From Escherichia phage vB_EcoM_SHAK7854: DNA of 39,734 bases. Shown piece by piece: positions 3,044-8,570 of this stretch; positions within the stretch are counted from its first letter, which is position 1, and every line of letters starts with the position of its first letter. The stretch lies in sequence record OR594182. One strand, given 5' to 3'. A program made the translations under genes and the position numbers. The notes below the pieces were generated by a model. The model did not search any database. It was not told where the DNA came from and worked only from the letters and a program-made list of their open reading frames with translations.

Positions 3044-3072
3044 TTGACTACAGGTCCAGACTATGGCTTAAT
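3044..3072 (+). promoter_or_regulatory. candidate host sigma70 early promoter (T7 A1-like position)
   Basis: TTGACT, 17-nt spacer, CTTAAT; surrounding sequence resembles the T7 A1 region. Confidence 0.4.
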
Positions 3073-3397: not shown

Positions 3398-3652
3398 ATG
3401 GACACTATGAAACACTTAAGCACAATCACTAATCGCAATGAAGTATTCGTGAACACTAAAGGTTATGCGTGGATTCAGCTTAAAGAGATGAGAGGAGCGC
3501 GTCACCGTGTGGTAGTTCGCAAGGTATCAAGCAAGCCGTTCAGCAACTACAGCGTAGATACTATGCGTATAGACAACGAGACTTACCTGATAGACTCGCA
3601 GATAACCGTGCGTCCTACAGCGGGCATCTCAGCTCCTTATTTCGCTAACTGA
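3398..3652 (+). CDS. hypothetical early protein (84 aa)
   Basis: first ORF of the early region, downstream of the candidate host promoters; no homology recognised. Confidence 0.55.
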   Translation: MDTMKHLSTITNRNEVFVNTKGYAWIQLKEMRGARHRVVVRKVSSKPFSNYSVDTMRIDNETYLIDSQITVRPTAGISAPYFAN

Positions 3653-3654
3653 GG

Positions 3655-3705
3655 GTGATTAACTACAGGTCGTTAGACTGATAGCGGCCTGACTGATAGT
3701 CACTA
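3655..3705 (+). repeat. early intergenic hairpin element type A, copy 2
   Basis: GTGATTAACTACAGGTCGTTAGACTGATAGCGGCCTGACTGATAGTCACTA; CAGGTC/GGCCTG stem. Confidence 0.55.
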
Positions 3706-3725: not shown

Positions 3726-4004
3726 ATGAGACTGAACAAAGCTACAGCAGAAGCCTTTCGCAAGGAGCTTGAATCAAGATTATTGTGTGGAGTGGCGGAA
3801 GGAGCCGCTCGATATAAAGAGAATGGTCTAACGTTCAAGCGCTTTATGTGGGATTGCTATCACGGAGTGGGCCATAAAAAGTCGCAGGAAATAATCACCA
3901 GCAACAATGCGGAAGTGCAAGTGATAGGAGGATACATGGCTAACGTGAAGGATTCACACATAGAGACAATGCTTAAGAATGCACTTAAAGATGTAGCCTA
4001 CTAG
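3726..4004 (+). CDS. hypothetical early protein (92 aa)
   Basis: ORF with AGAGGA RBS 7 nt upstream. Confidence 0.6.
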   Translation: MRLNKATAEAFRKELESRLLCGVAEGAARYKENGLTFKRFMWDCYHGVGHKKSQEIITSNNAEVQVIGGYMANVKDSHIETMLKNALKDVAY

Positions 4005-4054
4005 TGATTAACTACAGGTCGTTAGACTGATAGCGGCCTGACTGATAGTCACTA
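4004..4054 (+). repeat. early intergenic hairpin element type A, copy 3
   Basis: identical to copy 2 over about 50 bp. Confidence 0.55.
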
Positions 4055-4084
4055 ACACATAATTAACTTTGAGAGGATATAACT

Positions 4085-4588
4085 ATGGAACGTAATGCTA
4101 ACGCATACTATGAGCTGCTGGCTGCAACCGTTGAGGCATTTATCGAGCGTATTCAGTACGACCACCTGACTCAAGATGATGACTACAGCGATGCGCTGCA
4201 TGAGGTCGTAGACGGTCAGGTTCCACACTATTACCACGAGATTTTTACGGTGATGGCTGCTGATGGTATAGACCACGAGTTCGAAGACTCTGGGCTGATG
4301 CCTGAAACCAAGGACGTAACGCGTATCCTACAAGCTCGCATCTATGAGGCGCTTTATAACGATGTGTCTAATAGCTTGGATGTAGTCTGGTTTGAGGATG
4401 AAGAGGCAGAAGAAGAGGATGAATATTGGGTAGTTGACGCTAAAACAGGCGCAATAATTGTGCAAGCTGTAGCTCTTGAGGTCGCTACTGCATGTGCCAA
4501 TGTTAACTATGCGGCAGGTCGCCACCTGAAGGTGGAAGACATCAATGATAACGTAGTGTTCGACCCTGCGGCTGAGGACTGCGAGTGA
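4085..4588 (+). CDS. ocr: Ocr-like DNA-mimic anti-restriction protein (T7 gp0.3 homolog) with about 50-aa C-terminal extension
   Basis: [43 protein letters not shown] matches T7 Ocr; acidic tail present; 167 aa versus 117 aa in T7. Confidence 0.85.
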
Positions 4589-4733
4589 TGGTAACTTATG
4601 GCCTCTGCCAGCACCACGTCACTAACGCCCGGCTTATGGTCAAGACCGGGCAGTTAGACCACGATTGGGCTATGCGTCTCTTGAAAGTGGTCTACAGGAG
4701 ACGCAAGCGTATACACGACAGTTTACACGCTAA

Positions 4734-4782
4734 GTGACAGACTACAGGTCATCAATGCTGGTGGCCTGACTGATAGTCATTA
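4734..4782 (+). repeat. early intergenic hairpin element type A, copy 4
   Basis: GTGACAGACTACAGGTCATCAATGCTGGTGGCCTGACTGATAGTCATTAAC. Confidence 0.5.
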
Positions 4783-4800
4783 ACAACTGAGAGGGAAGAT

Positions 4801-5028
4801 ATGAACACAATCACTGGTGCCATAACCAAAGGTTTTCGAGCAATTTTCGGTGAAACGCAAGAAGTATGCACCAATCATAAATTCGTACTTTCTTGCGTAG
4901 CAGGTGACGAGTTTGACGGGTTCGATAAACTGGTGGTTTGCGACCATTGCGGACAAGAGGCTATCCAACACTCAAACGGTAAATTTGAATTAATAGACGA
5001 TAGCCTTACAGAAGGAGACGGCGAGTAA
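4801..5028 (+). CDS. hypothetical early protein (75 aa) with four cysteines and acidic C-terminus
   Basis: GAGAGGGAAG RBS; C-x8-C...C-x2-C spacing suggests a small zinc-binding fold. Confidence 0.55.
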   Translation: MNTITGAITKGFRAIFGETQEVCTNHKFVLSCVAGDEFDGFDKLVVCDHCGQEAIQHSNGKFELIDDSLTEGDGE

Positions 5029-5092
5029 CCTAAATAAGCAGGAGAGAACCAAATCATAGCTTGACCATAACACTGACGTGATGGTACTGAGT

Positions 5093-5135
5093 GATAGACG
5101 AGAGGTCATCGACTGATAGGTGGCCTCAAAGATTA
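5093..5135 (+). repeat. early intergenic hairpin element type A, divergent copy 5
   Basis: GAGGTCATCGACTGATAGGTGGCCTC retains the AGGTC/GGCCT stem. Confidence 0.4.
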
Positions 5136-5160
5136 CCACTTACATTGATAGGAGTTAACT

Positions 5161-5265
5161 ATGAGCACTGCAATCATCTGGACTATCTCAGGCTTCGTAG
5201 CGTGGGGAATGTTTACTCTAGTCTGCAAACTACCGGTCCTTACTCAACTGTTATGGGGCTTATGA
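5161..5265 (+). CDS. hypothetical small hydrophobic peptide (34 aa)
   Basis: GGAG RBS; MSTAIIWTISGFVAWGMFTLVCKLPVLTQLLWGL; stop overlaps next ATG (ATGA). Confidence 0.3.
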   Translation: MSTAIIWTISGFVAWGMFTLVCKLPVLTQLLWGL

Positions 5266-5465
5266 CTATGAGTATCGCACTATTGATAGCCATAGGCTAT
5301 GGACTTATCGCCTACGTGCTGGTGAGAGACATCAACAAGGCACGTAAAGTCTATAAATTCAACTATGTACGTATGGTCCGCTGGACTGTACGTCAACCTA
5401 ACGGACGATTCCTGCGCAATTTAGCGAACGTCTGGGATATAGCAACTCTTGGGAGCAAACTGTAA
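5262..5465 (+). CDS. hypothetical early membrane protein (68 aa)
   Basis: internal Met of ORF-track 5091..5465 chosen as start; N-terminal hydrophobic helix then basic tail. Confidence 0.4.
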   Translation: MTMSIALLIAIGYGLIAYVLVRDINKARKVYKFNYVRMVRWTVRQPNGRFLRNLANVWDIATLGSKL

Positions 5466-5888: not shown

Positions 5889-8570
5889 ATGAGCGTCATC
5901 TCTATTGACAAACACGACTTCTCTGATGTGTCGAACGCCATTGAGCCGTTTAACCTGCTGGCTGACCACTACGGGCAAGACCTTGCAGTCAAACAGCTTC
6001 AGCTTGAGCATGAGGCCTACACTGAAGGTGAGCGACGTTTCATCAAGAACCTTGAGCGTCAGACCGAGCGAGGGGAACTGGCAGACAATCAGGTCGCCAA
6101 GCCTTTGATGCAGACTCTGGTTCCTAAGATTGCGCAAGCCGTCAAGGAGTGGCACGAAGGTCCAGACGGGAAGCTGTCAACCTCACGTCCGAGCGTAGCG
6201 TTCACCATGTTAAGCACTGAAGAGAAGGCCGTCAAGGACCGCTCTCTTCGCATCTCCTGCGAGTCTGCTGCGGTTATCATACTGAAGGTCATCCTCTCCA
6301 AGCTGGTCAAGCCTGAAGGTATACCGATTACACCGATGGCCTCCGCGATAGGTCGCACACTTGAGGATGAAATCCGATTCGGTCGCATTCGTGACAAGGA
6401 GAAGGAGCACTTCAAGAAGGCGATAGCTGATAACCTGAACAAGAGAGCCGGGGCATCATACAAGAAAGCCTACATGCAAGCGGTCGAGACATCCATGCTG
6501 GAGCAAGGCCAACTAGAAGATGCGTGGGGAACTTGGAGTCCGACCGAGGCTGTCCACGTTGGAATCAAGATGCTGGAGATTGTCATACAGTCAACACAAC
6601 TGGTCGAGCTTAAGCGTTACGGTGCTGGCAATGCAGCGGCTGACGTTGAGATGGTCCACCTGTCAGACTTCTGGGTCAAGAAGATGGCACAACGAGGATT
6701 CAGCCTTGCGGGTATCGCCCCAGTCTACCAGCCTTGCGTCGTTCCACCTAAGCCGTGGACTGGTGTCGTAGGTGGTGGGTACTGGGCCAAAGGTCGCAGA
6801 CCGTTACCATTGATTCGCTTAGGGTCTAAGTCTGCGGTAGCACGTTATGAAGACGTATACATGCCTGAAGTCTATGACGCTGTGAATATCATCCAGAATA
6901 CACCTTGGAAAGTGAACAAGAAGGTATTGGACGTGGTGAACAAGGTCGAGAAGCTGAACAACACGCCTATTGATGACATCCCTCAGATGGAACCGCTGAA
7001 GCCTGAGGACTATGCGGGTGAGACTGAAGAAGAACTCAAGGCATGGAAGAAGGCTGCTGCTGGTATCTATCGCCGCGAGAAGGCCAGACAGTCACGAAGA
7101 TTGTCACTGAGCTTTATCGTCAACCAAGCGAACAAGTTCTCTCAGTTCAAGGCCATCTGGTTCCCGTATAACATGGACTGGCGCGGTCGCGTCTACGCTG
7201 TGCCGATGTTCAACCCTCAGGGTAACGACATGCAAAAGGGTCTTCTGACTCTGGCAGTCGGTAAGCCTATTGGTGCTGATGGTTTCAAATGGCTGAAGGT
7301 CCACGGTGCAAACTGCGCGGGTGTCGATAAAGTCACCTTCGAGGAGCGTATCAAGTGGGTGGAAGATAACCACGACAACATCATGGCTGCTGCCAAGGCA
7401 CCGATGGATAGCATTGAGTGGTGGGGCAAGTTAGACTCTCCGTTCTGCTTCCTAGCGTTCTGCTTCGAGTATGCTGGCGTAATGCACCACGGCTTGTCTT
7501 ACTCCTGCTCGCTGCCGATAGCGTTCGATGGGTCCTGCTCTGGGATTCAGCACTTCAGCGCTATGCTTCGCGACCACATCGGTGGACATGCAGTAAACCT
7601 GACGCCATCCGGTAAGGTCCAAGACATCTACCGCATCGTGTCTGACCGCATTGAGGAGGAGCTTAAAGTCCTACTGGTTAACGGTACGGACAACGAGATG
7701 GTAACTCACGAGGACAAGAAAACTGGTGAGATTACCGAGCGTCTCAAGCTGGGGACACGAGAGCTTGCCCGTCAGTGGCTGACCTACGGTATGTCACGAA
7801 AGGTCACTAAGCGTTCGGTCATGACTCTGGCCTACGGGTCGAAAGAGTACGGCTTCGCAGACCAAGTTTACGAGGACATCGTGATGCCAGCGATTGACTC
7901 AGGGTCTGGCGCTATGTTCACTGAACCAAGCCAAGCATCTCGCTTCATGGCTAAGATGATTTGGGAAGCTGTGAGTGTGACCGTAGTTGCTGCGGTTGAC
8001 GCGATGAAATGGCTTCAGGGTGCTGCCAAGCTGCTTGCTGCTGAAGTGAAGGACAAGAAGACTGGAGAAATCCTGAAGCCTTGTCTTCCGGTACACTGGG
8101 TCACACCTGATGGTTTCCCTGTCTGGCAGGAATACCGCAAGAAGGACACCACTCGTCTGAACCTGATGTTCTTAGGGTCATTCAACCTTCAGCCTACCGT
8201 CAACAAAGGCACGAAGAAAGAGCTGGACAAGCACAAGCAGGAGTCAGGCATTAGCCCGAACTTCGTCCACTCACAAGATGGTAGCCACCTCCGCAAGACT
8301 GTAGTCCACACTCACCGAAAGTATGGCGTGATGTCATTCGCAGTGATTCACGATAGCTTCGGGACCATCCCGGCTGACGCTGAGTATCTGTTCCGTGGAG
8401 TCCGTGAGACGATGGTAGAGACTTACCGCGATAACGATGTGCTGCTTGACTTCTACGAGCAGTTTGAATACCAGCTTCATGAAAGTCAGCGCGACAAGTT
8501 GCCTGAGCTTCCGAAGAAAGGTAAACTAAATATCGAAGACATCTTGTCTTCAGACTTTGCATTCGCTTAA
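5889..8570 (+). CDS. single-subunit DNA-directed RNA polymerase (T7 gp1 family)
   Basis: 893 aa, collinear with T7 RNAP (PFNLLADHYG, WFPYNMDWRGRVYAV, SPFCFLAFCFEYAG, AFDGSCSGIQHFSAMLRD, HDSFGTIPADA, C-terminal FAFA). Confidence 0.97.
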   Translation: MSVISIDKHDFSDVSNAIEPFNLLADHYGQDLAVKQLQLEHEAYTEGERRFIKNLERQTERGELADNQVAKPLMQTLVPKIAQAVKEWHEGPDGKLSTSRPSVAFTMLSTEEKAVKDRSLRISCESAAVIILKVILSKLVKPEGIPITPMASAIGRTLEDEIRFGRIRDKEKEHFKKAIADNLNKRAGASYKKAYMQAVETSMLEQGQLEDAWGTWSPTEAVHVGIKMLEIVIQSTQLVELKRYGAGNAAADVEMVHLSDFWVKKMAQRGFSLAGIAPVYQPCVVPPKPWTGVVGGGYWAKGRRPLPLIRLGSKSAVARYEDVYMPEVYDAVNIIQNTPWKVNKKVLDVVNKVEKLNNTPIDDIPQMEPLKPEDYAGETEEELKAWKKAAAGIYRREKARQSRRLSLSFIVNQANKFSQFKAIWFPYNMDWRGRVYAVPMFNPQGNDMQKGLLTLAVGKPIGADGFKWLKVHGANCAGVDKVTFEERIKWVEDNHDNIMAAAKAPMDSIEWWGKLDSPFCFLAFCFEYAGVMHHGLSYSCSLPIAFDGSCSGIQHFSAMLRDHIGGHAVNLTPSGKVQDIYRIVSDRIEEELKVLLVNGTDNEMVTHEDKKTGEITERLKLGTRELARQWLTYGMSRKVTKRSVMTLAYGSKEYGFADQVYEDIVMPAIDSGSGAMFTEPSQASRFMAKMIWEAVSVTVVAAVDAMKWLQGAAKLLAAEVKDKKTGEILKPCLPVHWVTPDGFPVWQEYRKKDTTRLNLMFLGSFNLQPTVNKGTKKELDKHKQESGISPNFVHSQDGSHLRKTVVHTHRKYGVMSFAVIHDSFGTIPADAEYLFRGVRETMVETYRDNDVLLDFYEQFEYQLHESQRDKLPELPKKGKLNIEDILSSDFAFA

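Follow-up and report, generated by a model that had tools for sequence, protein, structure and literature searches.

A long K1F-type Ocr homologue with a predicted accessory domain set within its acidic tail

The protein encoded at 4085-4588 of Escherichia phage vB_EcoM_SHAK7854 (OR594182; the whole stretch of 39,734 nucleotides analysed here is called the window) is probably an ordinary Ocr DNA mimic that carries a lineage-typical, dispensable and tethered protein-binding module. About one sixth of the Ocr-bearing phage records carry this extra domain, which is confidently folded in structure predictions and selectively maintained. The gene found in the window is itself ordinary, being 98.8% identical to deposited genes (the closest match is the annotated "protein Ocr" of vB_EcoP-101120B1-2), and the interest of the locus rests only on the role of the extra domain.

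Ocr is the textbook example of a DNA-mimic anti-restriction protein and it triggers several back-up immune systems, and to our knowledge all of its biochemistry has been done on the 117-residue form of T7. Natural pairs of long and short alleles on near-identical phage backbones offer a ready-made comparison for the effect of the domain on the defences that Ocr evades or by which it is sensed. K1F-like phages serve as therapeutic and engineering chassis, so such an effect would also have practical use.

Identification of the long ocr gene

The phage is a K1F-like relative of T7 belonging to the genus Kayfunavirus, its early region sharing 97% DNA identity with Escherichia phage LM33_P1 and other members of that genus, and the open reading frame under study is its gene 0.3. 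The gene sits in the early region, upstream of the ORF for the 893-residue phage RNA polymerase (5889-8570), a layout shared with K1F and T7. The features of the gene and its product are as follows (all on the + strand):

4071-4077, +: Shine-Dalgarno-like GAGAGGA, 7 nt upstream of the ocr ATG, read from the sequence
4085-4588, +: gene 0.3 (ocr), K1F-type long allele, with ATG start, 167 residues and TGA stop, from the ORF list
4085-4393, +: Ocr DNA-mimic core, residues 1-103, predicted to be all-helical, acidic, aligning with T7 Ocr
4394-4423, +: acidic linker, residues 104-113, matching the T7 acidic tail, 9 of its 10 residues being D or E
4424-4567, +: accessory C-terminal domain, residues 114-161 (48 aa), strand-strand-helix-strand-strand in the AlphaFold2 model
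4472-4522, +: fast-evolving helix segment within this domain, residues 130-146
4523-4567, +: conserved last hairpin of the domain, residues 147-161, starting at H147
4568-4585, +: acidic tail AAEDCE with its cysteine, residues 162-167, common to the short alleles
4588-4737, +: small downstream gene, K1F gp0.35-like, whose ATG overlaps the ocr stop (TGATG)

The original prediction that this gene encodes an Ocr homologue is borne out by three comparisons. The Pfam family ocr (PF08684) matches residues 8-95 with 104.9 bits (cut-off 25), PHROG 2568 ("ocr-like anti-restriction") matches residues 1-142 (E = 1.9e-54), and in a phmmer search of PDB sequences the stretch 11-113 pairs with residues 11-116 of T7 Ocr (1S7Z, E = 1e-25) and the alignment reaches into the acidic tail; nine further PDB entries are matched by the same residues. 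The whole protein has a pI of 4.05 (40 D+E vs 8 K+R) and the core alone a pI of 4.16 (22 D+E vs 5 K+R), with helices predicted by AlphaFold2 at 2-26, 35-69 and 76-95. Residue F54 (T7 numbering), which has been linked to dimerisation and to sensing by PARIS (PMC9122126), is invariant in both Ocr alignments that were checked. A profile match well above the cut-off, an acidic helical core, the presence of F54 and the position in the early region together identify the product, on sequence grounds, as an Ocr homologue. Inhibition of type I restriction-modification and of BREX methyltransferases by this protein would be expected from homology.

The resemblance to T7 Ocr (gp0.3) is extensive. The cores are homologous (61.5% identity over residues 17-94 by tblastn), the pI is 4.05 in both proteins, F54 is kept, and in both phages the gene is an early one lying upstream of the RNA polymerase gene and overlapping by its stop codon the start of the next gene. 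In contrast, T7 Ocr ends after its acidic tail at 117 residues, whereas the protein of the window continues for another 54 residues, comprising the folded 48-residue domain and a cysteine-containing ..EDCE end. Towards its end the core differs as well, T7 having ..DLWEDAEDLLNEYLEE.

Anatomy of the long form

As the alignment with T7 Ocr ends at residue 113, the non-Ocr remainder of the protein spans residues 114-167, or 54 residues. The extra segment of about 50 residues that had been noticed earlier is therefore real: it is in frame and conserved, and its boundary had been placed correctly to within 2-3 residues. Its description as an extension beyond the acidic tail holds in part. The additional residues are genuine, but the tail is split, with the acidic linker (104-113) before the additional block and ..AAEDCE (162-167) after it. 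This four-part anatomy (core, linker, domain, tail) emerges from an alignment with the Ocr proteins of T7, of Klebsiella phages, of K1-5-like phages and of short-allele Kayfunavirus phages. Judged from that alignment, the 48-residue block is best regarded as an insertion, flanked by an acidic linker that varies and an acidic tail that is conserved, and "C-terminal extension" is an imprecise term for it.

The motifs of the K1F-type long Ocr are all present in the protein of the window, namely EYWVVD..TG, L..A......Y..G and the last-hairpin motif, followed by the acidic cysteine-containing tail. Relatives have linkers of between about 0 and 20 residues. A cysteine in the tail is conserved more widely, as ..EDCE in Kayfunavirus alleles of either length and as ..DCDD in those of Klebsiella phages; the corresponding ..EDEE of T7 is without it.

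Predicted fold and selection on the domain

Structure prediction, which had been proposed as a check on the extension, returned a small separate domain with a confident fold: modelled alone with AlphaFold2, it reaches a pLDDT of 92.5 and a pTM of 0.75. In the full-length model the domain has a pLDDT of 80-85, with strands at 114-118, 124-129, 148-151 and 157-159 and a helix at 131-143, and the pLDDT of the linker falls below 50 at residues 107-109. The pTM of the full-length model is 0.48, which suggests that core and domain have no fixed orientation towards one another. These models portray the domain as an autonomous, independently folding unit on a flexible acidic tether.

Selection was estimated from 13 related long alleles by pooled pairwise Nei-Gojobori counts, so that the following dN/dS ratios are pooled estimates and not the outcome of a tree-based test:

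Core (residues 1-103): dN/dS 0.20
Linker (104-113): dN/dS 0.43
Whole domain (114-161): dN/dS 0.38
First hairpin of the domain (114-129): dN/dS 0.33
Helix segment (130-146): dN/dS 0.92
Last hairpin (147-161): dN/dS 0.07

Synonymous divergence is substantial throughout the extension (pS about 0.30). In the last hairpin pS is 0.34 and pN 0.03, so the conservation of this hairpin lies at the protein and not at the DNA level. The same pattern emerges from the column entropies of 120 sequences: L131, A134, Y142, G145 and H147-P161 are nearly fixed, columns 123, 132, 133, 141 and 144 are variable, with exposed positions of the helix among those that vary, and the mean entropy of the last hairpin (0.34) is as low as that of the Ocr core. 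By these pooled counts the domain is under purifying selection where it is present, and hence functional there. The high dN/dS of the helix could reflect relaxed constraint instead of an arms race.

Distribution of the long form

The original prediction had implied that the extra segment was unusual. This is not the case: the alignment to Ocr family members that it called for finds the segment in many Ocr homologues. When the last 57 residues are used as the sole query, 71 GenBank phage records match (K1F included), with one match per genome that is always found under gene 0.3. A query with the entire protein is covered to at least 80% by 93 of the 572 Ocr-bearing phage records. Among the best 120 clusters from a collection of 5.8 billion proteins clustered at 90% identity, nearly all have a length of 162-179 residues and carry the segment.

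Gene 0.3 of the type phage K1F (YP_338090.1) encodes a protein of 169 residues with the same architecture (core, linker, domain and EDCE tail), 83% identical overall to the protein of the window, and it is followed by the same neighbour gene with the same overlap. Differences from K1F gp0.3 and the other Kayfunavirus long alleles are only allelic and are concentrated in the helix of the domain, where the family consensus ..ACAKDHYAIG.. is altered in the lineage of the window. In many K1F-like phages the long form is the norm, and it is typical of their lineage.

A second, divergent clade also carries the domain. It is made up of Stenotrophomonas phage IME15, several Aeromonas phages and Escherichia phage Ebrios, with a weak match in Kosakonia Kc166A. 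Their long Ocr proteins (173 residues) consist of an Ocr core followed, at the equivalent position, by a domain with the same predicted pattern, which hhalign places in register with the Kayfunavirus profile over 45 columns (E = 6e-4). They differ in that identity over the domain is about 31% and the EDCE tail is missing, and the phages belong to other T7-like groups.

No description of an extra Ocr domain was found in the literature searched, in which the K1F-type gene 0.3 is named just "antirestriction". The long-Ocr group has been in the databases since the genome record of K1F, and the domain itself is undescribed as far as this literature shows.

Short alleles, remnants and fusions

Sister phages of the same genus carry short alleles of 110-114 residues, found in Bas105, in CR44b and in eight IMG/VR contigs (L011-L017, L019). 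Their core is near-identical to that of the window (87% identity for Bas105), they end in ..EEDCE or ..EEACE, and their stop codon and downstream gene are as in the long alleles. What they lack is exactly the 48-residue domain, along with part of the linker. At the DNA level the junction shows microhomology, at the short repeat GAC GAG G. Sequence comparison of these loci presents the domain as a module that is present or absent between otherwise near-identical phages.

These alleles also bear on the possibility, raised originally, that the segment is an artefact in which a sequencing or assembly error removed a stop near codon 117 and produced a false read-through. T7 Ocr does end at about the same point, but we give this explanation a negligible probability, as the frame and the domain recur in the 71 independent GenBank records, among them K1F, and in nearly all of the best 120 metagenomic clusters. 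The short alleles are in-frame deletions with the same terminal EEDCE and stop rather than products of an earlier stop, and the segment is both under purifying selection, as estimated above, and predicted with confidence to fold.

In a neighbour-joining tree of the first 300 nt of the gene, the Kayfunavirus clade has long and short alleles scattered among one another throughout. This mixing on a tree of the core indicates that the block has been lost, or exchanged by recombination, many times. Two remnants support its deletion. Salmonella phage PRF-SP5 (L006, 504-887) retains the last strand and the tail alone (..SDSVVFDHAAAEDCE), and the gene of IMEP24 (L074, 1162-1722) encodes a chimera of 186 residues in which the first half of the domain is joined to unrelated sequence. 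The frequency with which the domain is lost means that the phage can do without it.

Other additions at the same end of the protein were encountered. In P0098 the domain is fused to the downstream gene, and two T7- or SP6-like contigs (L056, L073) have unrelated C-terminal additions on Ocr. Such sporadic fusions fit what is reported for T7 Ocr, which still blocks restriction when C-terminal tail residues are removed (PMC3439906). The Ocr tail is a permissive site.

Across 13 long and 10 short Kayfunavirus loci, no gene of the early region was found to track the allele type, and gene content therefore gives no clue to a partner for the domain.

Search for relatives of the domain

A search for a stand-alone donor gene was made with an HMM of the domain against the six-frame ORFs of the window and of 82 related loci. 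Only the frame of gene 0.3 was matched, in long alleles, in the chimera of IMEP24 and in the remnant of PRF-SP5; the other ORF hits all had E > 3. On a broader scale, a profile built from 34 domain sequences and searched against 1.84 billion representative proteins found no significant sequence relative outside Ocr. Two weak matches (E = 4e-6 and 1e-4), to a 2313-residue surface protein and a 600-residue repeat protein, were judged spurious, both being repeat-rich and matched over short stretches. The long Ocr proteins were missed by this search too, presumably because representatives of the short form stand for those clusters, and it therefore covers other contexts and not all members of the clusters.

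Scans of all 34 domain sequences against Pfam and PHROG gave sub-threshold matches only (a PepSY hairpin motif, Kelch_2 and HTH_64). A Foldseek search of BFVD and PDB with the model of the domain alone gave nothing at E <= 0.001, the nearest structures being those of tiny uncharacterised phage proteins. Small inhibitors built of a sheet plus a helix, such as T4 Dmd, AcrIF9 and AcrIIC3, score within chance for a 50-residue domain and have no sequence similarity to it; the resemblance says only that folds of this kind can act as protein-binding inhibitors.

Two named families were considered and rejected. For PepSY (PF03413), the best match reaches 19 bits against a cut-off of 24 and covers 14 residues ("WVVDAETGAIIEQE") at profile positions 45-60 of 60. 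It corresponds to the C-terminal hairpin of PepSY and occurs in 3 of the 34 members, the sequence of the window not being one of them. For ClpS, hhalign of the domain profile against the E. coli protein gives a probability of 0.3%. The fold shared by ClpS and the C-terminal domain of L7/L12 calls for a strand-helix-helix-strand-helix-strand order over about 80 residues together with sequence or profile similarity, and the domain does not fit it. A protease-adaptor-like or propeptide-like inhibitor, in which the domain would mimic part of ClpS or of a PepSY-type domain and act on a host protease or chaperone such as ClpA, is accordingly very improbable. The PepSY matches, which lie at a "VDAxTG" hairpin and reach E = 0.0018 at best, speak for it, but these are as short and as far below the cut-off as just described, the likeness to ClpS is limited to a strand-helix-strand unit amounting to about half of that protein, and Foldseek retrieves nothing significant.

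A less specific alternative is that the domain is a passenger or stabiliser, i.e. what is left of a small phage gene after its fusion into the permissive tail, serving as a harmless cap or as a guard against proteolysis or aggregation, with no partner among the defences. The other sporadic fusions to the Ocr tail (IMEP24, P0098, L056, L073), the repeated loss of the domain, the largely dispensable nature of the T7 tail (PMC3439906), the failure to find a homologue of known function and the prevalence of the same type of fold among tiny uncharacterised phage proteins are all compatible with this. A mere passenger would sit uneasily, however, with a last hairpin conserved like the Ocr core in both dN/dS and entropy, with the persistence of the domain in two clades whose Ocr proteins are just ~60% identical over their whole length, and with the failure to find a stand-alone donor copy in the related genomes. 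We regard it as rather unlikely.

Possible roles of the domain

Work on T7 describes the Ocr core as a dimer that imitates bent B-form DNA and blocks type I restriction-modification and BREX, and Ocr is itself sensed by PARIS, EcoR22I and Ronin (PMC3439906; PMC9122126; bioRxiv 10.1101/2023.04.06.535777). By homology to T7 Ocr, residues 1-103 of the protein of the window would form such an acidic, helical and dimeric DNA mimic, first made after infection.

Our preferred reading, an ordinary Ocr with a tethered module, adds to this core a domain whose placement can be envisaged from T7. In T7 Ocr each monomer has its C-terminus at its distal tip, at the point where a DNA duplex would leave the enzyme, so a dimer of the long form would carry one domain at each end. 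We infer that this domain is probably a protein-binding module. It could change the set of host defence proteins that are engaged by the mimic, either by adding a second target or by hindering recognition by the systems that sense Ocr (PARIS, EcoR22I, Ronin).

The same location at the ends of the dimer lends itself to a different interpretation, in which the linker and the mildly acidic domain simply lengthen the DNA-like surface, to reach for example the HsdR motor subunits or longer DNA-binding tracks, and tune affinity or range with no separate partner. The linker, with all but one of its residues acidic, and the composition of the domain (6 D+E vs 3 K+R, pI 4.5) are in keeping with a longer mimic, as is the position of the T7 C-termini. 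Yet the acidity of the domain is far below that of the core, a linker of anywhere between about 0 and 20 residues is ill-fitting for a mimic of fixed geometry, and the part that is most conserved is a hydrophobic and acidic hairpin rather than a phosphate-like array of charges. A longer mimic is thus improbable.

A more specific form of the tethered-module reading can be offered tentatively: the domain may be an autonomous counter-defence module that blocks a second defence or shields Ocr from abortive-infection sensors (PARIS AriA, EcoR22I or Ronin-like decoys). Were this the case, the fast-evolving helix would be the interface of an arms race, and the repeated gain and loss of the domain among sister phages would mirror the sensors present in their local hosts.

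Neighbouring genes and intergenic hairpins

The overlap of 1 nt between the ocr stop and the start of the next gene is also annotated in K1F, and in T7 between genes 0.3 and 0.4. The gp0.35-like gene that follows ocr in the window is present in all 23 of the Kayfunavirus loci compared.

The early cistrons, including the ocr/0.35 pair, are flanked by repeated hairpins with an internal loop:

3654-3704, +: intergenic hairpin
4003-4053, +: intergenic RNA hairpin with an internal loop, upstream of ocr (-22.9 kcal/mol, z = -5.0)
4733-4781, +: intergenic hairpin (-19.0 kcal/mol, z = -2.2)

They contain the motif ACTACAGGTC, of which there are four exact copies on the + strand (at 3047, 3662, 4011 and 4741) and, allowing one mismatch, 14 matches on both strands vs 3.6 expected by chance. 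A folding energy of -22.9 kcal/mol is shared by two of the hairpins (z = -5.0 and -3.6), and the motif copy at 3047 forms no such structure. By analogy with T7, these intergenic hairpins look like RNase III processing sites of the T7 type, and the corresponding transcripts may be processed at them.

Upstream of ocr lie two ORFs, of 84 residues (3398-3652) and 92 residues (3726-4004), with hairpin elements between them; neither belongs to a Pfam family, and the first occurs in about 8 of the 23 loci and the second in about 3. Downstream, a cysteine-rich ORF of 75 residues (4801-5028) lies inside a block of about 270 nt (~4785-5054) that has 88-90% nucleotide identity, by megablast, to sequences in the unrelated siphophages VB_EcoS-Golestan, Bas75 and phiEc3. 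This ORF is present in 3 of the 23 Kayfunavirus loci and looks like a recently exchanged accessory gene.

For the ORF of 124 residues at 5091-5465, the listed start is probably internal. A hydrophobic helix in its product gives a weak match to Ninjurin (E = 0.0017, below the cut-off), and what its relatives share with it is only a membrane protein of about 65 residues (MS.ALLIAIGYGLIAYVLVRD..), which is found in 22 of the 23 loci.
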